Assembly: GCA_024275365.1 (NCBI GenBank)
Contig: JAJRZG010000157.1
Span: forward strand, 18 to 64,017
Origin: Planctomycetota bacterium
Lineage (GTDB): Bacteria > Planctomycetota > Phycisphaerae > Phycisphaerales > UBA1924
DNA: 64,000 bases
Direction: 5' to 3'
Shown: positions 40,842 through 64,000 of the stretch, piece by piece
How the letters are laid out: every line of letters begins with the position of its first letter
How positions within the stretch are numbered: the stretch's first letter is position 1
Notes under the pieces: generated by a model
What the model was told of the DNA's origin: nothing
What the model saw: only the letters and a program-made list of their open reading frames with translations
The model's database searches: none
Position numbers and translations under genes: made by a program

Positions 40842-40874
40842 GCAAGGCGATAGCATTTGGTAGTGAAAGAGCGA

Positions 40875-43445: not shown

Positions 43446-43460
43446 TCGGAGCACAACCGA

Positions 43461-45976: not shown

Positions 45977-46905
45977 ACACAGTGCGCGTCGCCATGACGC
46001 AGACTCTCAATGCATTCCGTGATATGCCTGATTCGCTCGATGGCATTGCATCACTTGCGGACAGGCTCGATGACATCCGCAGTGCAAATGTGCGACACAA
46101 TCTTGATCTTCTCATGCGGGCAGGAAGTTCGGGCATCCAGGCTGTGTGTCTGGGCGAGCTCTTTACCGCACCGTACTTTGCGTTGACGCGGGATGACCTT
46201 TGGTTTTCGCTTGCTGAAGATGCTGCCACTGGCCCGACTATTTCGGAGATATCGGAAGCCGCCGCTCGATTGGGCATCGTTGTCGTCGCGCCGATCTATG
46301 AATGCGAGATGGAGACCGGAAGGCGGTTCAACACTGCGGTTGTTATCGACGCTGACGGCACGGTGTTGGGCAAGTACCGCAAGGTTCATATCCCTGTGGG
46401 CGGGAATGAGCAGGCGTGTTTCGATGAGCGGTACTATTATGAGCCGTCACGAGTTCCGCAGAATGAACCTTCACCGAGTATCCTCGGTGACAATCCGTAC
46501 TTCCCGGTTTTCAAGACTGCTGTTGGGAATATTGGTGTTTCGATTTGTTATGATCGACACTTTGAGGGTGTGACTCGTTCTCTGCACCACGCGGGCGCAC
46601 AGATTATCTTCTCTCCAGCGGTTACATTTGGCGCAAAGTCGAAGCGGATGTGGGAGATAGAGTTTGAGGTTGATGCTGCCCGGCATGGGTTGTATCTCGG
46701 CGGCTCGAACCGCCTCGGGGCCGAGAAGCCCTGGAATCAACCGTACTTTGGCCGGAGTTCTTTCTTCGGGCCTGATGGGCGGGTTGCAAATATCAGTGAA
46801 GACCCGTGCCTTGCGATTGCGGAGTGTGATCTCGATGTATTGGAGAAGCCGGATGATTCTGGCTGGGACCTTTCACGCGATGCTCGCCCATCGGTCTACA
46901 GTTGA
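45973..46905 (+). CDS. carbon-nitrogen hydrolase (beta-ureidopropionase / N-carbamoyl amidase-like)
   Basis: Catalytic triad contexts CLGELF (Glu), YRKVHIP (Lys), VSICYDRHF (Cys). ATGA overlap with the upstream stop. Confidence 0.8.
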   Translation: MNTVRVAMTQTLNAFRDMPDSLDGIASLADRLDDIRSANVRHNLDLLMRAGSSGIQAVCLGELFTAPYFALTRDDLWFSLAEDAATGPTISEISEAAARLGIVVVAPIYECEMETGRRFNTAVVIDADGTVLGKYRKVHIPVGGNEQACFDERYYYEPSRVPQNEPSPSILGDNPYFPVFKTAVGNIGVSICYDRHFEGVTRSLHHAGAQIIFSPAVTFGAKSKRMWEIEFEVDAARHGLYLGGSNRLGAEKPWNQPYFGRSSFFGPDGRVANISEDPCLAIAECDLDVLEKPDDSGWDLSRDARPSVYS

Positions 46906-46919
46906 CCACTCGTCAGTGG

Positions 46920-48953: not shown

Positions 48954-49213
48954 GGCTATGGGAAGCATAGCCGTACATGGAGTGGTACGACTCTTCGGCA
49001 GTTGCTTCTCTGTAAACTCAATAATGCACCCTTTCAACCCCCGGATTGCCAGTATTCTTGGGGTAACTTCCGTTATGGGTGACAGCATTCGGTGGCCGCT
49101 GGAGGTAGCCAAGTTGCCGGGAATCCGATATAATCCGCTGAGGTCTTGTATGTCACGCTGGCGGGCTTTATGCAGCCCAGTCAGCCACTGGTCTCTTTTG
49201 ATGAGGTGGCGCG

Positions 49214-50401
49214 ATGGGTAACGCAACGAGAACCGAGGTTGAATCTCCGCTTGCAACGGACTTTCTCAATATTCGAAGTCTGTTGTCTGAAGATGAGATT
49301 ACAATCCAGGAGGCTGTCGCACGGTTTGTGGATGAGCGGGTCATCCCGCTTATGGGTGATGCGTTTGATGAGCACCGGTTTCCTCAAGAACTCATCCCAG
49401 AGATTGCGGAGATGGGCTTGCTTGGGTGCAGCATCGATGGGTACGGCTGTGCCGGGCTCAACAGCGCGTGCAGCGGGCTGGTGTGCCAGGAGCTTGAGCG
49501 GGGGGACTCGGGGATTCGCAGCTTTACATCGGTGCAGAGCAGTCTGTGCATGTACCCGATCTTTACCTATGGGAGTGATGAGCAAAAGGAACGGTGGCTG
49601 CCTCAGATGGCTTCGGGTGAAGTGATCGGGTGCTTTGGGCTGACCGAGCCCGACGGGGGGTCGGACCCGGGAAACATGAAGACCAACGCCAAGCGAGATG
49701 GGAGCGACTGGGTGCTCAACGGGTCAAAGGCGTGGATCACCAACGGAATCATGGCGGATATCGCGATTGTCTGGGCATCGACCAGCGAGGGAGTGCGTGG
49801 GTTTATCGTTGAGAAGGACATGCCCGGCTACACAACTCGGGAAATCACACGCAAGTTTTCGCTTCGGGCCTCGGACACCGCTGAGTTATTCTTTGACAAT
49901 GTGAGGCTTCCCGAGGCGAGTATGCTGCCGGGGGTTCGTGGGCTGCGTGGGCCTCTGAGTTGCCTGACACAGGCAAGGTTCGGTATCGCCTGGGGCGTGA
50001 TCGGAGCTGCGCAGGCGTGTTTCAGTGAGGTGCTCGAATATACCAAGGTTCGAGAACTCTTCGGACGGCCACTCTCGCACACGCAGACGGTGCAGCTTCG
50101 TCTTGCCGACATGAGCAGGCGGATCTCGACGGCTCAACTACTTGCATTACAGCTTGCCCGGCTTAAGGACAACGGGCAGTTGCACCACAGCCAAGTGTCA
50201 ATGAGCAAGTGGAACAACACGCGGATGGCTCTAGATATTGCGAGGGATGCGAGGGACCTGCTGGGCGCGAGTGGGATCAGCGTGGAGTTCTGCGCGATCC
50301 GGCACATGCTGAACCTGGAGAGTGTTGTGACTTATGAGGGGACCGAGACTATCCACGAGCTTATCGTTGGGCGCGAACTCACGGGGCATAATGCGTTCTA
50401 A
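49214..50401 (+). CDS. gcdH: glutaryl-CoA dehydrogenase-type acyl-CoA dehydrogenase
   Basis: FPQELIPEIAEMGLLG, ERGDSGIRS, GCFGLTEPDGGSDPG, WITNG, YEGTETIHELIVGRELTG. The overall pattern matches GcdH rather than short/medium-chain ACADs. Confidence 0.85.
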   Translation: MGNATRTEVESPLATDFLNIRSLLSEDEITIQEAVARFVDERVIPLMGDAFDEHRFPQELIPEIAEMGLLGCSIDGYGCAGLNSACSGLVCQELERGDSGIRSFTSVQSSLCMYPIFTYGSDEQKERWLPQMASGEVIGCFGLTEPDGGSDPGNMKTNAKRDGSDWVLNGSKAWITNGIMADIAIVWASTSEGVRGFIVEKDMPGYTTREITRKFSLRASDTAELFFDNVRLPEASMLPGVRGLRGPLSCLTQARFGIAWGVIGAAQACFSEVLEYTKVRELFGRPLSHTQTVQLRLADMSRRISTAQLLALQLARLKDNGQLHHSQVSMSKWNNTRMALDIARDARDLLGASGISVEFCAIRHMLNLESVVTYEGTETIHELIVGRELTGHNAF

Positions 50402-50421
50402 CTCGGCATGTATATTCCGGT

Positions 50422-50985
50422 TTAGGCCTTGGGAGGCAGATACATTTTGATCAGGCGATCGGCAAGAGCACTGCACCGGCTGTAGATATCTGCGTATACG
50501 GGCTCGGATTCGACTTCGGAATAGCCGCGAGTCAACTGCGTCAGGTCGGCCCCCTGCACAATCTGGTCCGCCATCTCGAAAAGCACACCGTCTTCTTTGG
50601 CGATGTGGTTGCGCAATAACTCTATAAAGGCCTCGCCTTCATAGAGGATTCGGAGCATCGCGTTCTCGTCACCACTGTCAGCGGCTTCGATGGCATCACT
50701 GATCTTCTGCACATGGACCCGCCCCATCTCGTGCTCGCGGAGCATGCACCCGATCGGGCCACCCTCGCGTGATATGCCTTGGGATTCGAGTTGGGGGAAC
50801 AACCTCTGCTCTTCTTTGCAGTGGTGGCACTTGTCGGCAAAGCCCCGGAAAAACTCAACAAACGGCTCGAGCAACTCGGCGGATGCCCGGCCTGACTCTC
50901 GGGAGTTCGCAAGTGCAATCTCGAAACAATCAAGCACACGGAGGATGACCTGGTGCTCTTGGCGGAGGCGGTTGGTGGTTTCCAA
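50422..50985 (-). CDS. hemerythrin-like (HHE cation-binding) domain protein
   Basis: LRQEHQVILRVL..., HHCKEEQRLFP, MLREHEMGR, NHIAKEDGVLF are His/Glu ligand contexts of hemerythrin-like domains. Start uncertain: TTG 50985 with AAGGA 7 nt upstream is chosen; the track ATG 51192 overlaps the upstream gene. Confidence 0.6.
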   Translation of the reverse strand: METTNRLRQEHQVILRVLDCFEIALANSRESGRASAELLEPFVEFFRGFADKCHHCKEEQRLFPQLESQGISREGGPIGCMLREHEMGRVHVQKISDAIEAADSGDENAMLRILYEGEAFIELLRNHIAKEDGVLFEMADQIVQGADLTQLTRGYSEVESEPVYADIYSRCSALADRLIKMYLPPKA

Positions 50986-51112
50986 TGGATTGTCCTTTCG
51001 AGGTGAGATGCGCGATCGGGTGGATGTATTGGAAGCACCCTCAGGTCTGACATGGGTCACAGAGTTGTGGTACACAGAGTTGCTTTGCGCTCGATATGGT
51101 GTTGTTTCCGTC

Positions 51113-52339
51113 CTAAACTTTGGCCTTTTTGAGTGATTCAATAAACTCTGAAAGCTGGTTGGAGATATTATCTTCATCGAACTGTCGCGCATCGACCATA
51201 TCGGCTTCGATCATAATGTGCGGCACTCCCGCTTCGGTATAGCCGGGGAGGCGACGCTTGACATAACTGTTCCAAATACCGCAGCTTGCATTCCAGTGGC
51301 AGACGATGCCATCAGCACTGTAGTCGCGGACCATATCGAGGGTCCAGTCGAGTATCCACTGTGTCGAGCGGTTCATGGTGTTCCAGATGTAGCGGTCCAC
51401 GAGGCTGTCCATGGCGTTGTCGGCATCAAACTTGAACCACCAGCTGTGCGTGTAGGTGCTGGCGACAAAGACACAGTTGCGTTCAGCGGCAAACTGGGCG
51501 AGCCAGTTTTTGCGGGGCCAGATGGGGATAGCGTCCCAGATGAGGCGGACCTCTTCCTCCTGGATGAACGACTGGTTCTGCTCGACGCGGTCGGTGAGTT
51601 CGTCAAAGAGGGACTGGTAGTAGACGGTGCATTCGGGCAGGCCGCGGGCGATGACAATCGGTGCCATGGCGGCGAAAGCATCGGTGTTTGACCACGGGGT
51701 TGGCACCTTTCTGGCAAGTTCGAGGCACTCTTGCCACAGGTGGTTGGACCTGTCAGACTCGGCGACGATCTCACGGAGCTTCGTTTCACTGAAGGTCGTG
51801 CCGAATCGCTTGCAGATGTCTGCGAGGTGTTCTTCCATCTGGTTCTTGAAGTCGGCCTTTTCCTCGGCATTGTGTTCTTCGCGCTTGGCTAGCCTTTGCG
51901 TACGGAGAACATAATGCGGGACATCCTGCCCCCGCTCTTTGCAGATAGACTGCACTTGGTCGCCCCAACGCTCCACGACATTGCACTGAGAGTTGCACGC
52001 ATAAAAGAGGTCGGGCTTGGGCAGGCCGTGAATCGGCGACTCGACATCACCGAGCAACACGCCGATATCGGAGAGGGCGTAGGAGCAGACCTTGGGCGCG
52101 TGGAGGCCCCAGGCGTTGGTGCGGTCGATCGCGGCGAGCGAGTAGGGCTTGGTTGCATCGCGGACTGGGGAGAGTGCCCCGAGCATGGCGGCGTGGTTTT
52201 CTGGATAGACCGGCATGATGCCCGCAGCGAGGAGGGCCTCGGCTGGCGCAAACGCCGAGCACCATGCGATCGGCATCCCGTCGGCCTTGATCTTGTCATA
52301 GAAAGAGAAAATATCAAAATGCGTCTTGAGCTTCATCAT
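51113..52339 (-). CDS. stand-alone 2-hydroxyacyl-CoA dehydratase / benzoyl-CoA reductase (BcrB/C, HgdA/B) family subunit
   Basis: MMKLKTHFDIFSFYDKIKADGMPIAWCSAFAPAEALLAAGIMPVYPENHAA is the typical family N-terminus. Conserved-looking Cys at WCS, VCSY, YACNSQC, CHWNASC. No paired second subunit is adjacent. Confidence 0.7.
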   Translation of the reverse strand: MMKLKTHFDIFSFYDKIKADGMPIAWCSAFAPAEALLAAGIMPVYPENHAAMLGALSPVRDATKPYSLAAIDRTNAWGLHAPKVCSYALSDIGVLLGDVESPIHGLPKPDLFYACNSQCNVVERWGDQVQSICKERGQDVPHYVLRTQRLAKREEHNAEEKADFKNQMEEHLADICKRFGTTFSETKLREIVAESDRSNHLWQECLELARKVPTPWSNTDAFAAMAPIVIARGLPECTVYYQSLFDELTDRVEQNQSFIQEEEVRLIWDAIPIWPRKNWLAQFAAERNCVFVASTYTHSWWFKFDADNAMDSLVDRYIWNTMNRSTQWILDWTLDMVRDYSADGIVCHWNASCGIWNSYVKRRLPGYTEAGVPHIMIEADMVDARQFDEDNISNQLSEFIESLKKAKV

Positions 52340-52658
52340 TGTTATATTCGCCCTGTGTTGGTCGAAGCCCGCCCTGGTTATCCCGGGACTTGCGTCGAGT
52401 GTAGATAAGCACGAACGCCCGGCACGCGGCCACTGAGCATTCTTTGCAGTTGGATCCAAAGTCGTCTGGAGTTGGTGATCGGCTCATCACCTCAAACCCG
52501 AGCGACTCATACAGTTCGATTGTTTCTTCTGCTCGTGATGGTTCAACCAGATGCCGGCGCTTCCACCCAGCCGCTGCGAGCACCGGATCGGCGCGGAGCG
52601 AGAACTCAAGCGGCGTGTCGTCTTCATCTTTGGGCATCAGGTGAATATCTGCGTGCAT
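52314..52658 (-). CDS. small Cys-containing protein (hypothetical), coupled to the reductase operon
   Basis: ATG lies 15 nt after the upstream ATPase stop. AEETIELYESLGFEVMSRSPTPDDFGSNCKEC. The 3' end overlaps the next gene by 26 nt. Confidence 0.45.
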   Translation of the reverse strand: MHADIHLMPKDEDDTPLEFSLRADPVLAAAGWKRRHLVEPSRAEETIELYESLGFEVMSRSPTPDDFGSNCKECSVAACRAFVLIYTRRKSRDNQGGLRPTQGEYNNDEAQDAF

Positions 52659-52673
52659 TGAGACCTCTTGCGA

Positions 52674-53507
52674 CTATCGTGTCTCACTATGGGTCGTGCA
52701 TGTAGCGTCACTCTCGGCAAGTATCTTCAGACGGCGTTGTGCAAGGATGGCTGCGCCCATAGCGGCGACATACTGCACCATTTCTGGAGGTGGGACATTG
52801 ACCTTTGCGTTAAGGCTTGTGCTCACACCAGTCCCCATGGTCTCAAACCGCAGTATACCACCGATGAGTGTGTACTCGGGCTCAGCGCGGACCCGCTTCA
52901 TAAGCTGAACAGAGCGATCGACGAGCGATGTGATCGCGCCCTGCATGATGTCGGCGGGAGCAGTGCCCAGCGACAGATGGTTGATGACCTCGGACTCGGC
53001 GAACACCGCGCAGACACCGGAGATCGGGACCGCCTCCTTGGATGTAGCGGTGAGCGCGCAGATTTCTTCGGTCTTGAAGTTCATGTAGCGGGCGGTTTTT
53101 TCGAGGAACGCCCCTGTGCCCGCAGCACACTTATCGTTAAGTCGGAACGAGATGACTTTGGCTTCCTCGTCCAGTCGGCTTGCCTTCATAGTTTGGCCAC
53201 CAACATCGAGGAGTGTCCGCGTGCCTGGGAAGAGGAATGATGCGCCGCGGGCACTGGCGGTCAGGTCGGTAACATGGAGGTCTTTAAAGTCGGCCTGGTG
53301 GCGACCAAAGCCGGTTGCAATAACATAGTCAATGTCACTCGTTCGCAAACCCGATTTCTCAAGGCATCTCTCATAGACCTCGTGTGCAACCTCAGTGAGC
53401 TTGAACCCGGTGGGTCTCATCTCTCGAGCGAGGATCGTGCTGTCTTCGTCGATAATAATGGCCTTGGTGTAGGTCGATCCGATATCGATGCCGGTAGTGA
53501 TATTCAT
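52674..53507 (-). CDS. BcrA/BcrD/BzdQ/HgdC-type ATPase subunit (ASKHA fold, [4Fe-4S]-bridging)
   Basis: [46 protein letters not shown]. Confidence 0.85.
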
Positions 53508-54328
53508 TCGGAGGCCCCCACTGCGTCTCGAGGTTGTCGACTGAGCTTGATCTGGTCGAGTGCGTAGAGGGCAGCTCCCAGCGCACCCATATAATGTGAG
53601 TCTTTACTGACATTGAGCGTGACTTCGAGTTTGTCTTCCATCGCCTGAATCATGGCGATGTTGCGGGCGACGCCGCCGCTGAAAGTGATCTCTTCATCGA
53701 GCCCGACTCGGCGCATCAGTGAGAAGGATCGCACAGCGATAGACTGATGCACACCCCAGAGGATGTCCTCGACCTTTTTGCCCTTGCCAAGCCACGAGAG
53801 CACCTCGGACTCTGCAAAGACCGTGCAAGTCGTGCTGATTCGCACGGGCTTTGTGTACCTGAGGGCTGTTGCGCCCAACTCATTGAGCGGGATATCGAGT
53901 GCGCTGGAGGCAGCGCCGAGGAACCGCCCCGTGCCTGCAGCACACTTGTCGTTCATACAAAAATCCTCGATCTCACCGGCTGCGCTAACGCGGATGGCTT
54001 TGGTGTCCTGCCCACCCATGTCCAGCACGGTGCGCGTTTTGGGGAACATGTGGACAGCACCCCGCCCGTGGCAACTGATCTCGGTGACCTGGGCATTGCC
54101 AAAGGTCACACGGTAGCGTCCATACCCGGTCCCGATGATGAACTCGACCTCGGTCTCACGGATTTCCTGCTCTTCGAGCGCTTTGCTATATGCGTTTTCA
54201 GCTGCCTGCACAACATTGGCACCCGTGTCGATGAGCGACCGACCGACGATGTGGCCTTGCTCATCTATGATGACTGCCTTGGTTTGTGTTGAGCCGACAT
54301 CGACTCCTGCTGCATATGCCATGGGCAC
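53504..54328 (-). CDS. second, distinct BcrA/BcrD/BzdP-type ATPase subunit
   Basis: [46 protein letters not shown]. 4-nt overlap with the downstream ATPase gene. Confidence 0.85.
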
Positions 54329-54336
54329 ACCTCGTT

Positions 54337-55632
54337 CTATTTGACCAAAGACTGGTTCCGCCTGGCAGCCAGCCCCTCAAAGAATGCGTCGATACGGTTT
54401 TTCATCTGCGCCTCGGAAACGACTCGGCGGTCCATCATGTCCGATTCAATAAACAGCGTGGCGATGTCCCGGTGCTCGGTCAGGTAACGCCTGCCGTCGG
54501 CGAGCCCGGTGGAGACGGTTCGGCAGCTCTTGATCGGGTGATAAACGACCGCGTCAACATTGAACTCATCAATCATGCCCTCGAGCATCTGATCCTGGTG
54601 AAACATGCTGTCCATCGCGTCGCGGACGCTGAGCAGGGTTCCCTCTGCAAGGCTTGCGACGGGGTCTTCGAGTGAGTACTCGAACCCGCGGTTCGCGCCG
54701 CCGGATGCGAACCACAGGTAGGTCGAGTTGATAAAGGTGCCACCCCACTCGGTGAAGAGCTCGTTAAAGCGTCGGAAGATGGGGTAGCAGGGCACGCCGA
54801 CAAAGACGAGGCGGTAGACCTCTTCGGAGAGTGTGCCGATGCCGTGGGCAGCCTTGTACTCCATCTCTTCGACAAGCTCCTGGAAGAACTTGGCACCCTC
54901 GGGCGAGCCACGGAAGCCGTTGGCAACACCGAGATAGATAGTACCGTCGGTGAGGGCATTGAAGAGTGAGGGGCGACTCTTGTTGAGTTCGATGACATTC
55001 TTCCAGCCGACGCTTACCTCGTTGGCGTGGGCGAGGGTCTCCCGGAGCTTGTCGATATCAAACTTTTTGCCTGTGACCTCTTCTAAGGTTGCGATCAACT
55101 CCCAGAGCTGTGCCTCGACATAGCGCCGATCGTTCTCAAAGTCGTGTTTGTCGATAGTGCCGTAGTCGTTGCGGTCACGGGTGCCGGGAACATCGATCGT
55201 GACGACCGGGATATTGTGCATGCGTTCCCATATCTCGGCCCACTTGATATAAGTATTGCAGGCGTTGGTGAGGACGGCGATGCTTGGCTTTGGGATCCTC
55301 CCCATGGGGTGCTTGCCGGCGTTGAGCTGCACCGCGACATCGGCCTTGACATAGCCGCAGATATCGGGCGAATAGCCGTAATCTTCTGCTTTGTCGAGAT
55401 ACTCGTGCGAGACACGCCGGACGGCTGTCTGCAATGAGTTGATCTCGGGGAAGACGACCGGGAGGTCGAATGTCTTGAGCATCTCGTTGAGGCTGCCCAT
55501 CACGAACACATAGGCACTCTGCCCGCCCTGCTCGGCACACTGATTGAGCGATTCAAACCAGTCACGGAAGAGCTGAGCGCCGTCGCGGTTGCCACGGCCG
55601 ACAAGGGTGTCTGTTGAAGCCTGTTCTGCCAT
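54337..55632 (-). CDS. benzoyl-CoA reductase subunit B / BzdO-like (BCR/HAD family)
   Basis: 431 aa. [28 protein letters not shown]..., [17 protein letters not shown]. Family-typical layout and size for the beta subunit. Confidence 0.75.
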
Positions 55633-55649
55633 CGCTTTGTCCTCCGCCC

Positions 55650-56816
55650 TCAGGCAAACAGGAGGTTTTCCAGGAATGTTTCAACTTGCAGCTCGAGCTG
55701 CTCAAACGAGGTCATGTTTTCCTCGAACTCACTGACGAAGTAGGGGATGCCGCGATCATCGAGCGCGTGGGTGTATGCCACCTGCTCTTCGAGGCCGGGC
55801 TCGCACATTTTGGCTGCTGCCACGATGACAGCGTCGGCGTGCGCATGGTCAACCCTCTTGAGGAGCATCTCCTCCTTGAGCTTGCGGAGGTCGTGCTGGA
55901 CAGGGCTGTAGGACGATCGTTCGATGTATGCTTCGGCCAGTGCGAGCAGAGGGTCGCTCCCCGCGGGGATGTCTTCAGTGATCCAACGCAGCCCGATGAG
56001 AAAATCGTCAGCAACGACATAGCATGTCCTCCCGAGCATCCGCACAAGATCGAGCGGCGGCTGCTCGCAGAAGGCTCCCTCAAACACGATGCGAACACGG
56101 TCCTCTCGCTTCGTGGTTCCGGTGATGATCTGTGGAAGAATGTGCGAGAGTAGTGCGTTGTGCTCTTCGCGGGGAATGAGGCCCCCGATCGAAACGAGGC
56201 AGTACGCATCCTCGGCGGCGATCAGCCAGGGCGTGTTGCGTTTTATATCGTAGAGTTCACGCAGGAGTCGTCTGTTCTCGTTGAAGATCGCGATAGAGTT
56301 GTCGAGTGCTTCATCGTTAACTTTGGCACCAGCGACTTTCTCAATGACTCGCTTTATCCGGTCGTACTCATCGCGCAGATACGCTTGGCTGTGCGCCGAG
56401 TTGGGGTTCTGTGGTAGATAGAGAATCTGGCAGGGATAGTCGAAGTGGCGACCCCAGATAGCTGCCAAGTTGCGGGCTGCGTCGCAGATCGGGTGCGAGA
56501 CAAACAGGTCGAGCATGAGGTCGCCCTTGAGCGCGACTTGCAGCCCTGTCTTGAGAATCGAACACAAATAAGAGCCAAAGTGAGAGTCTGAGAGCGTCGG
56601 CTCAACAGGCGCGCCTCGTATCTTGACTGGCAACATGCCCGCTGCGTGAGCGATTTCTTCGGGGAAGTAGACCTGGAAGTGCCCGAGAACCTTCCCGCCT
56701 TGTTCACGCCATCGCTCAACGGTCGGGAATGTTGCGTCTTCGACCGTTTCTCGACAGGCATAGAGCACTTCATCGAGCGGTTTGCCTTGCCATTCTGTAA
56801 AGACAGGTGTGTGCAT
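55650..56816 (-). CDS. benzoyl-CoA reductase subunit C / BzdN-like (BCR/HAD family)
   Basis: 388 aa from ATG 56816 (GAGGA 9 nt upstream). KVLGHFQVYFPEEIAHAAGMLPVKI, YLCSILK, HPICDA, KMCEPG. Confidence 0.75.
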   Translation of the reverse strand: MHTPVFTEWQGKPLDEVLYACRETVEDATFPTVERWREQGGKVLGHFQVYFPEEIAHAAGMLPVKIRGAPVEPTLSDSHFGSYLCSILKTGLQVALKGDLMLDLFVSHPICDAARNLAAIWGRHFDYPCQILYLPQNPNSAHSQAYLRDEYDRIKRVIEKVAGAKVNDEALDNSIAIFNENRRLLRELYDIKRNTPWLIAAEDAYCLVSIGGLIPREEHNALLSHILPQIITGTTKREDRVRIVFEGAFCEQPPLDLVRMLGRTCYVVADDFLIGLRWITEDIPAGSDPLLALAEAYIERSSYSPVQHDLRKLKEEMLLKRVDHAHADAVIVAAAKMCEPGLEEQVAYTHALDDRGIPYFVSEFEENMTSFEQLELQVETFLENLLFA

Positions 56817-56855
56817 CTTGGGATTCCTCTGCAATAGCGCCCGTGGCGCTCATAC

Positions 56856-59321
56856 TCATCTGTGGTCAGCCATTCCGCTCTTTCTCGGATATTCCCAGCC
56901 GGGCAGGTCGATGTCCTTGCAGGCGTAGTTCATCTTGGGAGGCCTCGCACCTCGATCGAGTAGCCTGACCAAACCGCTGTTGATATAGGGGTTCTTGCGT
57001 GGATCGAACACCTCACCGGTTTCTTGCGCGAGCGATGCGTCGTCCTGTTCTCGTGAGAGCTGTGCCTTGAAGAGTGCCCGTGAATATGGCGCATCCTTGG
57101 CCATCTGGCGGGCTTGCTCATAGCCTCGGCGAAGAGCTTCGAGTTCGTCATCAAACAGGCCGTTGGAGAGGCCAATCTGGTAGGCCCTGGTGGCGGTGAG
57201 GCCCTGATCAAAGAGCTCATACGCCCCGGAATGCCCGACACCGATTCGCTTGAGCTCGCTTGCGCCTGCAAAACCGGGGAGGATGGCGTAGTCGAGCTCG
57301 GGCTGGTTGTAGATGGGCTTTTCACACCACACCGAAGTGCGTTCGAGCGTGTCGTAAACATAGCCAAAGGCACGGACATCGTACCGCAGATCGAGGAAGT
57401 AGGTAAACTCGGCCCCGCCGCCCCACTTCTCACCAAAGACACCGACAGATGCCACCGGGCTGCGTTGGATGGTGCGGAAGAGCTCGACCGCATTTCGGCT
57501 CGAGGCTGCGGCATCCTCCTCACTCAGCGGGGTGTACCCCTTGTCACGCTCGAACCAGCCTCGGTTAAACTCCTTCGCATCGGCACCGAGCATCCTCATG
57601 CCGGTGCCCGCGGCTGTGAAGAGCACCGCCCCGCAGCGCCCGTTCTCGTGGAGGTTCAGCACTCTGTGATAGGCGTGGGCTAGCTGGTCGATAACAGCGT
57701 GATTGAAGACATTGCCTCGCAGTGGGCAGTTAAAGACAATGCTCGCGACACGGTCTCGGGCGGAAGGCTCGTAGAGTTTCAGGTCGCCGTAGCAGCCGCG
57801 GTATGTGCCCGAGGCAAGATCAAGCTCGGCAACGGGGGTGTGGTAGTAGATGCCATAGCCGAGCAGGTGTGTAAGGTTTCGTTTCTTAAGTTCGTGCAGC
57901 AGGCAGGGCTTGCCGGTGCGCGGCCCTCGGAGCCCGTCGGCATCGAGCATGTCGAGCATGTGGGGGTCGGTGGCGTTCTCATCTCGGGCGCGGTGGATGA
58001 GCGTGAGCACGCCGTGAATCGTGAGTTCGTCGATCATCGCATCGACAAGCTCAACCAACCCAACCTTGAACCGCAGCCCAGCACGGCAGCAGGTGTTGAT
58101 CTGCCCGGGGGTCGCGTAGCCGTCTTGGATAAGATCGAGCACATAGAGGCAGAGCGGCAGGACATATCGCCGGAACGCACGCCCGGCGGTGTCATCAGCA
58201 AGGACGACAGCAAGCAACGCATCGCAACTCTTGATCTTGCCCTCGGCACGATCACGCTCGGCAGCCTCGAACATCGACCAGTACGCCTCTCGGGAGGTCT
58301 GGCCCTTGGCGATATACTTACGAGACTCGGGGTCGAAGACCTCAGCAGGCTTAGCGCGAGCGTCTGTTGTCCACTTAAAGAAGCCACACCGGTCCGGGGA
58401 GTTGATGCCGGAATGCCCTGATTTTTCGAGGTGGGCGATCCAGTCGGTGTAGTACACGCCATCGCGTGTGTAGATGCTCTTGAGCCTGTCGTGATCGGGG
58501 AGTGCCTGCCCCAAGTGACGAGACGACTCGGTGTAGGGCATGTGCCCAGTCTGGTCGAGGACGGTGAAAGGGTTTGCGGTGAACATCGACCAGAGCCCAC
58601 CAAGATCAATGATGTCTTGGCCGGTCTTGATGTCCCACGACATGATGGCAGCCATGCCTTGGAAGATGGGGTCAGCGATGTAGCCGTGATGGTCAACCGG
58701 GAGCGCCATCACGACCTTTTCGAGGACCTGATCAGCGAAGACCACGCCGAGTGCGTATGTCTCCGCGGAGGCATACTTGCCCTTCATTACATCAATGAGG
58801 CGGTTGAAGTCGAAGGGGAAGTAGCCGTGAACGGTCAGGAACTTGCTGCGGAGTACCTCCGTCTTGAAGAGGATCGCAAGCTCTTCGGTGGTATGCGAGG
58901 AGGTATTGGAGAAGATCGCCGCAAGATGATCGGCATCCAGAGATTCTTCAAGTGCTCTAAATATCTTCTTCTTAATGTCGATCGCTTCGGTTGCCGCCTC
59001 CCAGACGATGTCGGCAGTAGCAAGATCGCTGTACGACTGCGTGAAGAAGGTGCGTGATTCAAGGGCCTTTGCGTCTTCTGGCCTGATGCGGGTTGCGCTA
59101 ACCTCGCCTGCCCACTTGGCGTTGAGCACCTCTCTGGCCCGATCGAGGGCTTCGCTGTTGACATCGAGGAGGACGACCTCGCAGTCGGTCTTGAGGAGCA
59201 GGTCGGCAGCGATGCCCTGGCCCATGGTACCAGCACCGATCACCGCGACACGACGCATCTCAATGATGCGTTTGACTGCCGACTCGATTGTCTTGTCTCC
59301 AAAGGAGAATACTCGCTTCAT
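56856..59321 (-). CDS. bifunctional 3-hydroxyacyl-CoA dehydrogenase (N-terminal) / enoyl-CoA hydratase-isomerase (C-terminal) fusion, 821 aa
   Basis: VAVIGAGTMGQGIAADL Rossmann start, then HAD C-terminal helical domains. C-terminal crotonase fold (FNCPLRGNVFNHAVIDQL...AVLFTAAGTGMRMLGADAKEF). Confidence 0.8.
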   Translation of the reverse strand: MKRVFSFGDKTIESAVKRIIEMRRVAVIGAGTMGQGIAADLLLKTDCEVVLLDVNSEALDRAREVLNAKWAGEVSATRIRPEDAKALESRTFFTQSYSDLATADIVWEAATEAIDIKKKIFRALEESLDADHLAAIFSNTSSHTTEELAILFKTEVLRSKFLTVHGYFPFDFNRLIDVMKGKYASAETYALGVVFADQVLEKVVMALPVDHHGYIADPIFQGMAAIMSWDIKTGQDIIDLGGLWSMFTANPFTVLDQTGHMPYTESSRHLGQALPDHDRLKSIYTRDGVYYTDWIAHLEKSGHSGINSPDRCGFFKWTTDARAKPAEVFDPESRKYIAKGQTSREAYWSMFEAAERDRAEGKIKSCDALLAVVLADDTAGRAFRRYVLPLCLYVLDLIQDGYATPGQINTCCRAGLRFKVGLVELVDAMIDELTIHGVLTLIHRARDENATDPHMLDMLDADGLRGPRTGKPCLLHELKKRNLTHLLGYGIYYHTPVAELDLASGTYRGCYGDLKLYEPSARDRVASIVFNCPLRGNVFNHAVIDQLAHAYHRVLNLHENGRCGAVLFTAAGTGMRMLGADAKEFNRGWFERDKGYTPLSEEDAAASSRNAVELFRTIQRSPVASVGVFGEKWGGGAEFTYFLDLRYDVRAFGYVYDTLERTSVWCEKPIYNQPELDYAILPGFAGASELKRIGVGHSGAYELFDQGLTATRAYQIGLSNGLFDDELEALRRGYEQARQMAKDAPYSRALFKAQLSREQDDASLAQETGEVFDPRKNPYINSGLVRLLDRGARPPKMNYACKDIDLPGWEYPRKSGMADHR

Positions 59322-59346
59322 AGGTTTCGTACCTTGTGCTGAATCG

Positions 59347-60597
59347 TTAGCGTTGTGTTGTATCCTCGATGATTAACGCCGCGCCTTGGCCGCCCCCGAT
59401 ACACGCCGAGACGCAGCCATAACGCTCGCCTCGGTGGTCCATCTCATAGACCAGATCGGCGATCAGCCGCAGACCCGTTGCGGCAAGCGGGTGACCGATG
59501 GCGATCGCGCCGCCGTTGACATTGACGATCTCACGGGGGAGCTTGAGTTCTTTCTCCACGCCGAGGTATTGGGCGGCAAACGCCTCGTTGATCTCCCAAA
59601 GCCCAATATCGGATTGCTTGAGCCCCGCCCGCTGGAGCGCGACACCGATCGAAGGCACCGGCCCGCGACCCATGACCCGGGGCTCGACGCCACTAACACC
59701 AAACCCTGCGATTCTCCAGCGGGTCGAGAGGCCGAGTTCCTCCGCTCTCTCGCGCGAAGCGAGAACCGCAGCAGCACCACCATCGGCAATCTCACTGGCA
59801 TTCCCCGGTGAGACCAGCTTGTTGGGCGTAAAGCCGGGGAGTTTCTCAAGAATCTCCAGCGAGGTATTGCGGACACACTCATCGTGCGAGAGATGGACAG
59901 CCTGCCCATCCTGATCGACAGCATCGAGTGCGAACATGCCCCTCAGCAGCTCGCCACCATTGAGGTGGCTCTTGCGATTGGCAACCCGGGCGCGATCCTG
60001 CGAGATAACGGTAAACTCATCGCACTCGGCCCGCGTGATACCCATCCTCTTGCCATATTCGTCAGCAGTGAGCATCATCGCTGTGCCACCGAGGGTGTGA
60101 TTGAGTGAGGCGAGGATTGAATCCTCGACAGTTCCACCCTCTGCAAACTCCCAGAAGCTCGCCCCCGAGATGCGGCGCGATCTTATGATCTGCGGTGCCT
60201 GCGACATCGTCTCGGCTGCGGCACACAGCACCACCTGTGTATCATCGACGCAATCTGGCACAGCAATCTGCTGAAAGCCTGTGATAAGTGTCTGGATGCC
60301 CGAGCCACAGATGCGCTGCACCATGAACGAAGGGGTATCGACATCAAGCTCGCAGCGGAGGGCAATGTTGCGCGGGAAGTAGATATCCTGAGCACCGGGA
60401 GCAGTGAACTGATACACATTGGCACCAACCACCGCGTCGATATTCTGCCGGATGATCCCGGAACGGCTGATGGCTTCACACGATGCCAATGCTCCGAGTT
60501 GCTCGGCTGAAAATCCGCTCAACGCGCTACACTTGAGGCCGACAGGTGTCCGGGCGACGCCGGCGATGACGATATGTGGGAACTCACTCGATGCCAC
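59347..60597 (-). CDS. thiolase (acetyl-CoA C-acyltransferase)
   Basis: QRICGSGIQ (nucleophilic Cys), NVNGGAIAIGHPLAATG, SACIGGGQGAALIIE. Confidence 0.9.
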   Translation of the reverse strand: MASSEFPHIVIAGVARTPVGLKCSALSGFSAEQLGALASCEAISRSGIIRQNIDAVVGANVYQFTAPGAQDIYFPRNIALRCELDVDTPSFMVQRICGSGIQTLITGFQQIAVPDCVDDTQVVLCAAAETMSQAPQIIRSRRISGASFWEFAEGGTVEDSILASLNHTLGGTAMMLTADEYGKRMGITRAECDEFTVISQDRARVANRKSHLNGGELLRGMFALDAVDQDGQAVHLSHDECVRNTSLEILEKLPGFTPNKLVSPGNASEIADGGAAAVLASRERAEELGLSTRWRIAGFGVSGVEPRVMGRGPVPSIGVALQRAGLKQSDIGLWEINEAFAAQYLGVEKELKLPREIVNVNGGAIAIGHPLAATGLRLIADLVYEMDHRGERYGCVSACIGGGQGAALIIEDTTQR

Positions 60598-63500
60598 GGC
60601 TCATCCTTTGCGGTTTCTCTGTTCGAACCTCGATAACACTCTCACCGGGGTTCGTCTCGAACATCTCTTCCAGCTCTGACCGGAACACATCGAGCACTTT
60701 TTTGCGAACAATCTTTGCTGACGGCGTCAGCTCGCCCTTCTCAAGCGAGGGCTCGCGATTGGCAAGGATGAGACGACGGATCCGGGTGTAGGACTGCTCC
60801 AGCATCGGATTGATGCGCTCGAGTTCGGAGGCGAACAACTCCTTGATCGCCTTGCCCTCTTGGGCCGAGCTTGCAGTGATACCGCGAGAGGCAATCCACT
60901 CCTTCAGGCGACTTCGGTCCGGGTAAATGATCGCGCCGACATAGTCTTTGCCGCTACCGACGACGACCGCCTGTCGCACGAATGGGGACTCGTTGGTGAT
61001 TGTGTTCTCGATTCTCTGCGTAAGCACCTTCTCGCCCGTTGTCAGTTTGAAAGTGCCGTCCTTGCGTCCCAATATTTTGAGGCCATCGGGCGTGAACTCC
61101 CCGAGATCACCCGTGCGGAACCACCCGTCAGCATCGATGACATGGGCGGTCGCCTCTTCGTCTTCATAATACCCGAGCATGACATTCGGGCCCTTGATGA
61201 GTATTTCCTGGCTTGCGTCGATGCGGATGGAGACGCCGGGGATGGGGAACCCGACAAAGCCGCTGCGCCATGCTTCCGTGCCGGAGGTTATCGCAGCACA
61301 CGGCGAGGTCTCGGTCAACCCCCACCCCTCACGGACACCGATCCTATGCTCGCGGTATGCCGACTCGACATGAGCAGGAAGCGATGCAGCTGCGGTAAAG
61401 ACAAACCGAAGGCGACCACCAAAGACGACCCGCTCGACCTTAGTATCCTCGCGGCAACGGGTGATGAGCATGTCATGCACGCGAGGAACACTAAAGAATA
61501 TGGTGGGATCAAACAGTTTCCAGTTCTCAATGAGCCGATCTGTATCGCTGCCCTGTGAATCGCTCAGGCAGATCTGAGCACCGGTATAGAGCGACATAAA
61601 CCGTTCAAAGAGCGCACCAAAGCTGTGGTGCCAAGGCAGGTAGGTCAGGAAGATATCATGCTCCCCGACATCCCAGATCAACGAGAGTGCCTTCTGCTGT
61701 GATATAAGGTTTTTGTGACACAGTCGGACGCCCTTGGGTGGGCCGGTGGTTCCTGAGGTGTACATCAGCACGCACTGATCATCGGGACGAACAGCGTGGA
61801 TACGCTCAAGGACCGCCTGTTCGCTTGCGCCGCCGGGGCCGCCGAGTTCTGCGATAGGCGTGGCTCCCCATTGCACACACTTCTTGCACCCCTCGATGCT
61901 GAAGAACTCGTTGACACTGCCGCACGCCCCGCGATCAATCTTGTCGAGTTGGTGCTTGCCCGAGACAATGACCAGTCTGGGACGGGAATGCTGAATCACA
62001 TAAGCAACCTGAGCCGGGCGATGCCCCGCAAAGACCGGGACTGTAATCGCCCCGATGATCATGGTCGCGAGTTCAAGGATGTACATCCATGCGGAGTTTT
62101 CACAGACGAAACAAATCCTGTCACCCGGCCGGATACCTCGCGCAATGAGGTGAGCCGCGACACGGAAAATGCGGTCTCTGAACTCGGTCCAGCTCATGAC
62201 GACCTCGGTCTCCCCGTCGAGGTACCGCAAGTACGGCTTCTCACCCCATCGCTCGGCGCGATCAACAAGCACGATGCCGAGTGAGTCTTCATACTCACCA
62301 AGTGCGATCGTGTTGGTGTGCTCCTCACCGACTCGCTGGATGCCGATACTCTCATCGAGCCCGTGCGGCGTCGATTGGCAATAGGCCAGGCATGAATCCC
62401 GAAGTAAAGTCCGTGTGCGTTGGAACTGGAGATCGGTGGGAACAAACTGCTCGGTGGCCAAGTTAACTAGGCCCGAGCGGTGCTGTAACAGGTGAGAGGC
62501 TGCCAGGTAGACAATGTTGTTTGCGAGCTCCTTGATATGCGAGCCCCCGACACGCCCACCGACGCGAGCCGCGATCTCATGCACAACCCCACGCTCTATG
62601 CGTAAGCCGATGAGCCGATGAGCCGCGGCCTCGACCTCTTTGCACACCGGGAAGGGGGAGCGGATCATCTCGAGCTTGCTTCGGACGATCTGCTCGTCCT
62701 CGACATTGATGCATATCTCGAGTTTGATGAGGTGGTGACTGTCGAGCATCGTACCGATGCACACCAGTTCCTCCTTGCCCAGCTCGTAGAGCTCGATATT
62801 GATGTTGCGTTGCGACATGAGCTTCATGGATGCATACCCTCCGTTGGCTTTTTCTGCATCTCGGTGCCTTAAACGGATGGCGCGGGCCATGGACTCCTGC
62901 ACCCGATGCTCGAGCAACTCAAAGAGAGATTCCTCCCTCTTCAAGCCTGCCTGCCGGGCATAACGGCGAAGCGGGGTAAGGAGCCACTCCTCGGTGGGCA
63001 TCAGACGGACACTCTTGAGGTCATGATCGAGCGCGTCCCGGAATGTCTTGAGAGAGCTGGTGATGTGGCCAGCCGATTTGCGGATGATCGCCTGCCCACC
63101 TGCCCACACGCTGTCATAGGCATCTTCAGCCGTGTATGCGCCGCACCAGCGCCCCACCTCGAAGACCGCACGCGTGATCTCATCAACAAACTCTCGCTTG
63201 GACGGGTCTGCGCAGAGATCACCCATGCGCAGGTCGTTGAGCGAACCGTCGGGATTCACCACATGGATCAGCCCGCCTACATTGAGCACAATCGAGATCA
63301 TCGCCTTGTCAAACTCGATCCGTGCACCTGTCGCATCCGCGATATTCTCGCATGGATAGTCTCGCTCCGAGAGGATCGAGATGATCCGATCGCGCTCGGC
63401 ATCCCCCCCGCCCGCACAGATGATCCGGCCCTTGCCCTCGATGACATAGACTGCCTCGGTGCCAGTACCTCGCCTTGTCCCCGCTTGCAAAGCCACGCCT

Positions 63501-64000
63501 CGTACAACGCGATCGCACACTGCACGGATCATGTCGTCAGCCAACTGAGGAAGCCGACCTGGCAGAACAGATTCACGAATCTGATTTCTGAATGTCTGCA
63601 TCATCTCCTCAAAGATGATGCCGTTTGGAAGCATGAGCAAGATCGGCAGATTTTCCCGCACATCCTGAGGAGTGCGTAACCTCTCCTGCTCTGCAAGGTG
63701 CTCAAGAAACTTCGTAACATGCAGTGTGGCCGATGAAAGCTGCGCAGGATTGCAGCAGACCATCTGCAACTCCGGCACACCGTTGAGCGTCTCGGCTTCG
63801 AGCAGATTTGAGAAGATCCTGCCCTTGAGACCGAGCGTGTGGACCTCGCCGTTATCCTCGATGAGCAGCGATCGTTTCGCCTTGAGTTGCCGCGTGATGC
63901 CCCCGCCGCCGCGCCCGATAAAGCACTCGGCCTTGGTGTGCCAGAGGAATGCCACACCCAGTGACCCGGGGGGATGAACGCCGATCTCACCTCTGTTCAG
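60584..64000 (-). CDS. three-domain fusion: ketopantoate-reductase-like oxidoreductase + DUF2889-like domain + AMP-forming acyl-CoA synthetase (FAA1/COG1022-like); 5' end outside window
   Basis: The frame stays open upstream of the GTG at 63955 to the window edge. N-terminal LMLPNGIIFEE...IEFDKAMISIVLNVGGL (ApbA/PanE-like). Middle VGGRVGGSHIKELANN (DUF2889-like; from memory). C-terminal YTSGTTGPPKGV, GWGLTETS, WFRTGDLG, GRKDGTFKLTTGEKV. Confidence 0.75.
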   Translation of the reverse strand: MNRGEIGVHPPGSLGVAFLWHTKAECFIGRGGGGITRQLKAKRSLLIEDNGEVHTLGLKGRIFSNLLEAETLNGVPELQMVCCNPAQLSSATLHVTKFLEHLAEQERLRTPQDVRENLPILLMLPNGIIFEEMMQTFRNQIRESVLPGRLPQLADDMIRAVCDRVVRGVALQAGTRRGTGTEAVYVIEGKGRIICAGGGDAERDRIISILSERDYPCENIADATGARIEFDKAMISIVLNVGGLIHVVNPDGSLNDLRMGDLCADPSKREFVDEITRAVFEVGRWCGAYTAEDAYDSVWAGGQAIIRKSAGHITSSLKTFRDALDHDLKSVRLMPTEEWLLTPLRRYARQAGLKREESLFELLEHRVQESMARAIRLRHRDAEKANGGYASMKLMSQRNINIELYELGKEELVCIGTMLDSHHLIKLEICINVEDEQIVRSKLEMIRSPFPVCKEVEAAAHRLIGLRIERGVVHEIAARVGGRVGGSHIKELANNIVYLAASHLLQHRSGLVNLATEQFVPTDLQFQRTRTLLRDSCLAYCQSTPHGLDESIGIQRVGEEHTNTIALGEYEDSLGIVLVDRAERWGEKPYLRYLDGETEVVMSWTEFRDRIFRVAAHLIARGIRPGDRICFVCENSAWMYILELATMIIGAITVPVFAGHRPAQVAYVIQHSRPRLVIVSGKHQLDKIDRGACGSVNEFFSIEGCKKCVQWGATPIAELGGPGGASEQAVLERIHAVRPDDQCVLMYTSGTTGPPKGVRLCHKNLISQQKALSLIWDVGEHDIFLTYLPWHHSFGALFERFMSLYTGAQICLSDSQGSDTDRLIENWKLFDPTIFFSVPRVHDMLITRCREDTKVERVVFGGRLRFVFTAAASLPAHVESAYREHRIGVREGWGLTETSPCAAITSGTEAWRSGFVGFPIPGVSIRIDASQEILIKGPNVMLGYYEDEEATAHVIDADGWFRTGDLGEFTPDGLKILGRKDGTFKLTTGEKVLTQRIENTITNESPFVRQAVVVGSGKDYVGAIIYPDRSRLKEWIASRGITASSAQEGKAIKELFASELERINPMLEQSYTRIRRLILANREPSLEKGELTPSAKIVRKKVLDVFRSELEEMFETNPGESVIEVRTEKPQRMSRGIE

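Follow-up and report, generated by a model that had tools for sequence, protein, structure and literature searches.

The window analysed here is a 64,000-nt stretch of a Planctomycetota metagenome-assembled genome (MAG), and it carries near its right-hand end four adjacent genes for a predicted ATP-dependent benzoyl-CoA reductase. The operon around these genes is probably the right-hand two thirds of a full cluster for the anaerobic breakdown of aromatic acids via benzoyl-CoA. The initial annotation of this DNA had described a lower pathway with no recognisable trio of ring-processing genes, namely those for dienoyl-CoA hydratase (Dch), 6-hydroxycyclohexenoyl-CoA dehydrogenase (Had) and the ring-opening hydrolase (Oah). 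Inside the window this holds, as profile searches found no match to any of the three. However, relatives of the trio are encoded beside the reductase: the tail of a Had-like gene lies just past the window on the same contig, an Oah-like gene lies on a second, syntenic contig, and the full order is found in five related genomes. The seeming lack of the trio is an artefact of the contig and window end, and what is new at this locus is a divergent Had/Oah subfamily with accessory genes, not a missing trio.

The window covers positions 18-64017 of contig C54, which is 64514 nt long, leaving 497 nt past the window end. Its source MAG comprises 3.2 Mb in 350 contigs and is ~85% complete. For comparison, we used the best 80 of 517 relatives of the BcrC-like reductase subunit in species genomes (68-84% identical, from many phyla). 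Many of these related loci, labelled L below, are short contigs. As the nearest belong to MAGs of uncultured Phycisphaerales and Planctomycetota, the source organism is treated here as Phycisphaerae-like. Contig C54 ends inside a gene for a Zn-dependent dehydrogenase: its final 414 nt (C54:64101-64514), read on the minus strand like the operon, specify the C-terminal 138 aa. This fragment is 88% identical to residues 203-340 of the Had-like protein of L011, the closest relative (84% identity). In L011 and L040, the two closest complete loci, genes for a short-chain dehydrogenase/reductase (SDR), an enoyl-CoA hydratase (Dch-like) and a 340-aa Zn-dehydrogenase (Had-like) lie in this order directly upstream of the ligase gene. 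The best NCBIfam match of both Had-like proteins was TIGR03201 (250-262 bits; cut-off of the Had equivalog 339 bits). The Dch-like proteins scored 145-153 bits against TIGR03189 (Dch cut-off 292.5 bits), which was the best match for L040 and the fifth for L011. The initial annotation had named canonical trio genes just outside the window as a finding that would refute it, and this is essentially the situation here, with the Had-like gene of this MAG starting past the window end.

The Oah-like gene was found on contig C280 of the same MAG. This 5.1-kb contig encodes a truncated molybdenum (Mo) enzyme large subunit, a FAD subunit and a TetR-family regulator on one strand and, divergent from the regulator, the Oah-like protein on the other. 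The Oah-like gene sits at the very end of the contig and runs off it, and its product had TIGR03200 as best match (211 bits, Oah cut-off 464 bits, profile positions 39-346 of 360). Gene by gene and in the same orientation, C280 matches the DNA upstream of the operon in three related genomes (G001, G003 and G005; 46-88% protein identity), and contig C346 extends this synteny. Each of the five related genomes examined has an Oah-like gene as the immediate upstream neighbour of the SDR gene; its product has TIGR03200 as best match (204-215 bits), and the alignments take in the long C-terminal region that is typical of Oah. Upstream of the operon, L011/L101, L040, L103 and L104 show the order Oah-like, SDR, Dch-like, Had-like, and the full order in the five related Planctomycetota genomes continues with ligase fusion, thiolase, bifunctional beta-oxidation protein, reductase and glutaryl-CoA dehydrogenase. 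Neither the SDR gene nor the Dch-like gene was found anywhere in the MAG assembly, and of the Had-like gene the 5' two thirds were missing. Synteny with the five relatives suggests that they fall in an assembly gap of ~2.3 kb between C280 and C54, and the aromatic cluster of this MAG would then be split over three contigs: C346, C280 and, beyond the gap, the end of C54. As a lesson in method, a gene set that appears to be absent at the edge of a window needs to be checked against the contig end and against syntenic relatives.

Across the 80 related loci, the neighbours of the four-gene reductase core include Had-like genes in 36, Dch-like genes in 28 and Oah-like genes in 21. Judged by profile scores, the trio of this lineage consists of relatives of the Dch, Had and Oah families and not of members by the curated rule. 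The Oah-like protein of C280 groups with canonical Oah and with MbdY of the 3-methylbenzoyl-CoA (mbd) pathway (141-174 bits) and not with Dch. The divergent Had/Oah pair occurs in Planctomycetota and in single Acidobacteriota, Zixibacteria, Chloroflexota-like and Gemmatimonadota loci (L011, L033, L045, L049, L056 and L060). Other reductases, 68-72% identical to that of the window, lie beside canonical Had and Oah genes in L086 (Gemmatimonadota) and L044 (Acidimicrobiia), where Had scored 482 and 469 bits and Oah 566 and 559 bits. On a tree of concatenated BcrC and BcrB with the Aromatoleum enzyme as root, variant-trio loci are interspersed with canonical-trio loci, which argues that both types of trio would process the same reductase product. 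The comparison further suggests an exchange of the ring-opening genes, as one module, among reductase loci.

Three types of class I benzoyl-CoA reductase are recognised, BCR, MBR and BZD (PMC11971306). In the window, two HGD-D and two BcrAD_BadFG proteins are encoded by four adjacent genes (52674-56834). In searches of the PDB, the BcrB-like protein matched MbdO of 3-methylbenzoyl-CoA reductase (9g87_A, 531 bits, residues 9-428) and the BcrC-like protein matched MbdN (9g87_B, 534 bits), both essentially over their full length. The same searches gave lower scores for HadB/HadC (118 and 141 bits) and BzdO/BzdN (96 and 99 bits). To find the mbd locus of Aromatoleum buckelii, we searched with a DNA pattern based on a peptide specific to MbdO; the four window subunits were 53, 59, 71 and 55% identical to its genes (71% for the BcrA-like and 55% for the BcrD-like subunit). 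Against the Thauera-type NCBIfam models the catalytic subunits reached 202 and 230 bits (cut-offs 487 and 421), and they were far under the Bzd-type equivalog cut-offs as well. Genuine MbdO and MbdN also score below the cut-offs, with 223 bits (TIGR02260) and 224 bits (TIGR02263). Because of the MbdO and MbdN matches, the identities to the mbd genes and these shared sub-cut-off scores, the four-gene enzyme is assigned by sequence to the MBR (Mbd) type of class I, ATP-dependent benzoyl-CoA reductases. A genome search showed it to be the sole such system in this MAG.

This reductase is widely distributed. The four-gene unit is kept in at least 66 of the 80 related loci, and its core is 68-88% identical across distant phyla. 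The BcrB-like protein has at least 3848 environmental protein clusters at E ≤ 1e-50, many of them auto-named 'benzoyl-CoA reductase subunit B'. The reductase clade is therefore very abundant in metagenomes and often already auto-annotated as benzoyl-CoA reductase. To our knowledge, studies of MBR-type ATP-dependent benzoyl-CoA reductases have been confined to denitrifying Betaproteobacteria, and our literature search found nothing specific on this operon type in Planctomycetota. The MBR enzyme type, 68-92% identical among environmental sequences, occurs with full ring-opening and lower-pathway genes in Phycisphaerae and many uncultured phyla, among them Gemmatimonadota, Acidobacteriota, Zixibacteria, Acidimicrobiia and Elusimicrobiota. 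This spread suggests that the ability to degrade aromatic compounds without oxygen is widespread and has received little notice.

As a separate observation on reductase loci, two Gemmatimonadota loci contain a second, distant set of two HGD-D and two ATPase genes (L064:2816-6900 and L067:2842-7000; 24-39% identity), which sits a few kb upstream of the MBR-type reductase.

The lower pathway would be covered by three proteins of the window: a fused 3-hydroxyacyl-CoA dehydrogenase/enoyl-CoA hydratase (HAD-ECH) of 821 aa, a thiolase and a glutaryl-CoA dehydrogenase (GCDH). The HAD-ECH protein is kept in 19 loci at 64-81% identity. It had been proposed that its crotonase domain might group with Oah/BamA-type ring hydrolases, and we rejected this candidate. 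In BLASTP comparisons the domain reached no more than 17-38 bits with any Oah, Oah-like, MbdY or Dch sequence tested, whereas these score 141-481 bits among themselves, and TIGR03200 was not among the 25 NCBIfam families listed for the protein. The domain is an ordinary beta-oxidation hydratase domain. For the dehydrogenase encoded at 49214-50401, nine of the top ten PDB matches were glutaryl-CoA dehydrogenases (352-453 bits, e.g. 2eba at 453 bits and the human enzyme 1sir at 390 bits), while the next class reached at most 253 bits and short-chain acyl-CoA dehydrogenase 224 bits. Its NCBIfam scores were generic only. An orthologue (71-83% identity) lies beside the operon in 12 related loci. 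These matches identify it as a genuine relative of glutaryl-CoA dehydrogenase, as it had been called from the sequence at first.

Pfam and NCBIfam scans resolved the operon as a minus-strand run from 63955 to 50422 (Table 1). It begins with the ligase fusion and continues with thiolase, HAD-ECH, the BcrC-like and BcrB-like subunits, two BcrAD-type ATPases and further genes. All genes named in the initial annotation (ligase fusion, thiolase, HAD-ECH and reductase) are present on the same strand. Three more genes of the run were missing from it: a 114-aa open reading frame (ORF), a third HGD-D protein (HGD-D3) and a hemerythrin-domain protein. The GCDH gene is convergent with the reductase operon and starts back to back with a YgfK-like gene of the neighbouring module, from which it had correctly been described as divergent.

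Table 1. Genes of the aromatic operon in the window, listed from left to right (window coordinates).
Feature	Position	Strand	Basis
Glutaryl-CoA dehydrogenase, 395 aa	49214..50401	+	Three Acyl-CoA_dh Pfam domains; PDB sequence matches
Hemerythrin-domain protein, ORF of 256 aa, true start probably further downstream	50422..51192	-	Pfam Hemerythrin 67.7 bits
HGD-D3, lone third HGD-D subunit, HadB-like, 408 aa from ATG at 52339	51113..52339	-	Pfam HGD-D 170 bits
Small CxxC protein, 114 aa, core ~70 aa, directly after the second ATPase gene	52314..52658	-	tblastn conservation
ATPase subunit, BcrD/MbdP-like, 277 aa	52674..53507	-	Pfam BcrAD_BadFG 172 bits; TIGR02261 145 bits
ATPase subunit, BcrA/MbdQ-like, 274 aa	53504..54328	-	Pfam BcrAD_BadFG 215 bits; TIGR02259 223 bits
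Catalytic subunit, BcrB/MbdO-like, 431 aa	54337..55632	-	PDB 9g87_A 531 bits; TIGR02260 202 bits
Catalytic subunit, BcrC/MbdN-like, 394 aa	55650..56834	-	PDB 9g87_B 534 bits; TIGR02263 230 bits
Bifunctional 3-hydroxyacyl-CoA dehydrogenase/enoyl-CoA hydratase, 821 aa, HAD N-terminal, ECH C-terminal	56856..59321	-	Pfam 3HCDH_N, 3HCDH, ECH_1
Thiolase, 416 aa	59347..60597	-	Pfam Thiolase_N, Thiolase_C; TIGR01930 312 bits, cut-off 240
Three-part ligase fusion, 1123 aa: ketopantoate-reductase (KPR)/D-mandelate-dehydrogenase-like (~1-370), DUF2889 (407-482), FadD-type AMP-forming acyl-CoA synthetase (565-1101)	60584..63955	-	Pfam AMP-binding 240 bits, AMP-binding_C_3, DUF2889

Taken together with the genes upstream, the locus likely encodes a benzoyl-CoA-type pathway that is complete but arranged in a different way, with an MBR-type class I reductase at its centre, and so a variant of a known pathway. 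The ligase would activate an aromatic acid, and an Hcr-like enzyme, related to 4-hydroxybenzoyl-CoA reductase, would remove a 4-hydroxy group if one is present. The reductase, by its predicted activity, would then convert benzoyl-CoA to a cyclic dienoyl-CoA with electrons from a ferredoxin whose gene would lie at another place in the genome. Hydration, oxidation and hydrolytic opening of the ring would fall to the Dch-like, Had-like and Oah-like enzymes, after which HAD-ECH and thiolase would shorten 3-hydroxypimelyl-CoA to glutaryl-CoA and acetyl-CoA. Finally, GCDH would turn glutaryl-CoA into crotonyl-CoA, and HAD-ECH and thiolase would carry on to acetyl-CoA. A differently organised benzoyl-CoA-type pathway was one of two alternatives raised by the initial annotation, and it is the one that survives: the genes for beta-oxidation and for the ligase separate Had from the reductase, the trio is divergent, and the cluster has no ferredoxin gene.

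The activating and dehydroxylating steps have candidate enzymes of their own. The MAG contains no canonical benzoate-CoA ligase (best TIGR02262 score 108 bits, cut-off 375), and the FadD-like ligase of the fusion is therefore the only activating candidate in the cluster. The Hcr-like Mo enzyme has fused 2Fe-2S (gamma) and Mo (alpha) subunits and is encoded on C280 (L113:3-3043, minus strand) and at L101:2086-5843; its large subunit neighbours the four-gene core in 8 of the 80 loci. The alpha part was best matched by TIGR03194 (878 bits, cut-off 995) and in the PDB by 1rm6_A (549 bits, next match 334). Its FAD subunit (293-300 aa) matched the HcrB model with only 109 bits, in two pieces, and is closest in the PDB to CoxM/CutM-type flavoproteins. 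Since this subunit is generic, the electron partner and catalytic direction of the Hcr-like enzyme may differ from those of the Thauera enzyme.

Regulation and electron supply were checked beyond the window, where the initial annotation had seen neither a regulator nor a ferredoxin. Both are indeed missing from the ORFs annotated at 39-64 kb, but the TetR-family regulator lies on C280. Nothing in the PDB search marks this regulator as similar to MbdR, the repressor of the mbd genes, and we rejected it as an MbdR-like protein. A genome search found a 2-oxoacid:acceptor oxidoreductase alpha subunit above cut-off on contig C333; no pyruvate:ferredoxin oxidoreductase scored above cut-off in the MAG, and no ferredoxin gene was seen in the cluster here or in the relatives inspected.

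Several of these observations weigh against a complete benzoyl-CoA pathway as outlined above. Besides the missing ferredoxin gene, the ligase of the cluster is FadD-like and not a benzoate-CoA ligase, and neither profile nor PDB matches gave a signal for the HcrB [4Fe-4S] loop in the generic FAD subunit. The Dch-like and SDR genes are known from relatives only. The Oah-like, Had-like and Dch-like proteins all score under their curated cut-offs and are only 30-35% identical to MbdW, MbdX and MbdY, and a trio this divergent possibly acts on a somewhat different ring intermediate.

Thauera aromatica has the genes bcrCBAD, dch, had, oah, fdx and korAB as well as the 4-hydroxybenzoyl-CoA reductase HcrCAB (PDB 1rm6). 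The window shares with it the C-B-A-D order of reductase genes, ring enzymes from the same three families, a GCDH that ends the lower pathway and, as proposed here, the same sequence of reactions; the alpha part of the neighbouring Mo enzyme is best matched by the alpha subunit of 4-hydroxybenzoyl-CoA reductase. The two systems differ in that the catalytic subunits of the window fall under the cut-offs of the Thauera-type models, the Hcr-like enzyme has a gamma-alpha fusion and a FAD subunit with no sign of the HcrB Fe-S loop, and the window cluster contains neither fdx nor korAB.

Part of the operon could serve the entry into the pathway instead. It is conceivable, although unlikely, that the ligase fusion, HGD-D3, HAD-ECH and thiolase are mainly a feeder (peripheral) module and not only a lower pathway. 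The KPR-like domain would then reduce phenylpyruvate or 4-hydroxyphenylpyruvate to a D-2-hydroxy acid, from which the ligase would make the CoA ester. HGD-D3, as a radical enzyme activated by the ATPases of the reductase (or, in other genomes, by an activase of its own), would dehydrate this ester to cinnamoyl-CoA or coumaroyl-CoA, and beta-oxidation would give (4-hydroxy)benzoyl-CoA for the Hcr-like enzyme encoded nearby and the reductase. The N-terminal ~370 residues of the fusion gave only faint sequence signals. However, a Foldseek search with an AlphaFold2 model of residues 1-540 (14 orthologues, pLDDT 71) matched D-mandelate dehydrogenase and ketopantoate reductases (E 4e-9 to 1e-7, TM on target 0.59-0.66), which fits the first step. 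The invariant residues of the domain (N111-G112, K217, N225, T299-S300-S301 and E322) presumably resemble KPR catalytic motifs, and we take this as a lead only. Conversely, the domain has an unusual glycine motif (G14-x-x-G17-x-G19), which is modelled poorly.

The comparison of loci likewise bears on the feeder module. An extra HGD-D gene is present in every locus with this ligase type that extends far enough. In the Acidobacteriota locus L033, an HGD-D protein, an activase, a 603-aa ligase and a stand-alone ApbA/ApbA_C-family reductase are encoded by separate adjacent genes, the ligase and reductase at L033:3279-6079. We rejected a kinship of the fused domain with this stand-alone reductase, to which BLASTP finds no similarity. 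Other Planctomycetota and L033 have a homologue of HGD-D3 (27-32% identical) with its own activase ATPase beside the ligase, for instance at L016:714-2773 and L033:6073-8240, and in most of the other Planctomycetota loci the homologue (27-30% identical) and activase lie between Had and the ligase. HGD-D3 itself is nearest to the alpha subunit of 2-hydroxyisocaproyl-CoA dehydratase (NCBIfam HadB alpha 164 bits versus BcrB 63 bits; PDB 3o3m_A 131 bits versus MbdO 62 bits), and it keeps three cluster cysteines, shared without exception by 16 homologues and aligned with cysteines of BcrB and BcrC. HGD-D3 may work like a dehydratase.

The clostridial (R)-2-hydroxyacyl-CoA dehydratases (HadBC/HadI and FldBC/FldI; PDB 3o3m) resemble this arrangement in further respects, with BcrAD-type activating ATPases adjacent and a 2-oxoacid-reductase-like domain and a CoA-activating enzyme associated. 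They differ from it in having an alpha/beta pair where the window has a single HGD-D gene, and a CoA transferase where the window has a ligase. The putative module of the window lies inside a benzoyl-CoA operon, in a bacterium outside the clostridia. In known 2-hydroxyacyl-CoA dehydratases, two HGD-D subunits form a heterodimer that works with an activator ATPase, but HGD-D3 is a single extra gene and no partner subunit was seen in any locus, so we did not file it as a member. No aminotransferase or other gene that would name the substrate was found in the cluster, and an ordinary lower pathway fully explains HAD-ECH, thiolase and GCDH. A still more specific version is slightly less likely again. 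In it, the fused D-2-hydroxyacid-dehydrogenase-like/DUF2889/CoA-ligase protein and a single-subunit, HadB-like radical Fe-S enzyme that borrows the ATPase pair of the reductase would act with HAD-ECH and thiolase to make (4-hydroxy)benzoyl-CoA from aromatic 2-oxo or 2-hydroxy acids that stem from amino acids, and the divergent Had/Oah pair and the small CxxC protein would be further uncharacterised parts of MBR systems. If true, this feeder module of the Planctomycetota-type benzoyl-CoA operon would be undescribed.

The closest characterised reductase acts on 3-methylbenzoyl-CoA, and the mbd cluster of Aromatoleum/Azoarcus sp. CIB and its relatives encodes MbdONQP, MbdW/X/Y and the TetR repressor MbdR (PMC4424350; PMC11971306). 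Both clusters contain the same four-subunit type of ATP-dependent reductase, genes for a ring hydratase, dehydrogenase and hydrolase and for beta-oxidation, an adjoining TetR-family regulator and, after mbdP, a small ORF related to the CxxC protein of the window. A true mbd analogue for methyl-benzoyl-CoA or otherwise substituted benzoyl-CoA, in which a ring substituent explains the divergence of Had, Oah and Dch, is nonetheless improbable. GCDH, kept in the operon as a bona fide enzyme, fits an unsubstituted C7 product and takes the place of the methyl-branched lower pathway of mbd, and reductases with variant and canonical trios are interspersed on the tree. The TetR protein was not specifically MbdR-like in the PDB search. 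We also rejected the variant trio as orthologues of MbdW/X/Y: A. buckelii MbdY is a canonical Oah (570 bits, above the cut-off) and the lineage trio is no closer to MbdW/X/Y than to other versions, with the low identities given above. The variant trio can therefore not be taken simply for that of mbd. The clusters differ further in the order of reductase genes (C-B-A-D in the window, O-N-Q-P, or B-C-A-D, in mbd), in the lack of ferredoxin or 2-oxoglutarate:ferredoxin oxidoreductase genes from the window cluster, and in the extra genes of the window, namely the KPR-like/DUF2889/ligase fusion, the lone HGD-D subunit and the hemerythrin-domain protein.

That the reductase acts on an alicyclic or heterocyclic CoA ester in a pathway truly without Dch, Had and Oah, the other alternative of the initial annotation, is highly improbable: no trio gene lies inside the window and a module for N-heterocycles (purines) adjoins the operon, but synteny largely refutes the idea, as Had-like, Oah-like and, in relatives, Dch-like genes flank the operon, the reductase is of MBR type with orthologues in other phyla that sit with canonical Had and Oah, and the purine module is a separate cluster matched in only one of the 80 related loci.

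Two further proteins accompany the predicted benzoyl-CoA reductase of the window. The 114-aa ORF directly behind the ATPase genes encodes a small CxxC protein, for which tblastn found homologues at the same position in 55 related loci from many phyla, and a weak match to it follows mbdP in A. buckelii. Its invariant residues are G31, W32, R35, E45, Y50, G54, C71, C74 and T87. No Pfam family scored above its curated cut-off for it, searches of NCBIfam and of PDB sequences gave no match, and the confident core of its AlphaFold2 model (pLDDT 85-98) had no significant fold match. We considered this ORF as the missing ferredoxin and rejected it, as only two cysteines are invariant, no Fe-S family scored above cut-off and no fold matched. 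Its possible roles include that of a fifth component of MBR-type reductases or of a factor for their assembly. The hemerythrin-domain protein has weak matches to YtfE/RIC Fe-S repair proteins, and homologues lie beside the reductase in 12 loci from several phyla (including L032, L037, L054, L073, L077, L083, L088 and L090). These proteins may protect the oxygen-sensitive reductase from oxygen or repair its clusters. Together with the variant Had/Oah pair, the ligase fusion and the lone HGD-D subunit, both are targets for biochemistry.

A purine-type anaerobic module abuts the aromatic cluster and is separate from it. It spans 39345-49256 of the window and encodes a Se-dependent xanthine dehydrogenase (TIGR03311 893 bits, cut-off 830), a short YgfK-like Fe-S protein, an amidohydrolase, an M20 peptidase, a C-N hydrolase and a pyridoxal-phosphate-dependent enzyme. 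We rejected a 778-aa Fe-S protein and a Mo enzyme at 40-49 kb as parts of the aromatic cluster, since they belong to this Se-dependent xanthine dehydrogenase/YgfK module. The single match to the module's genes among the 80 related loci was a homologue of the M20 peptidase.

The G+C content of the window drops from ~0.60-0.65 to ~0.55-0.59 across the purine and aromatic modules (about 40000-64000). This drop and the high identity of the reductase across phyla are consistent with a horizontal spread of both modules.

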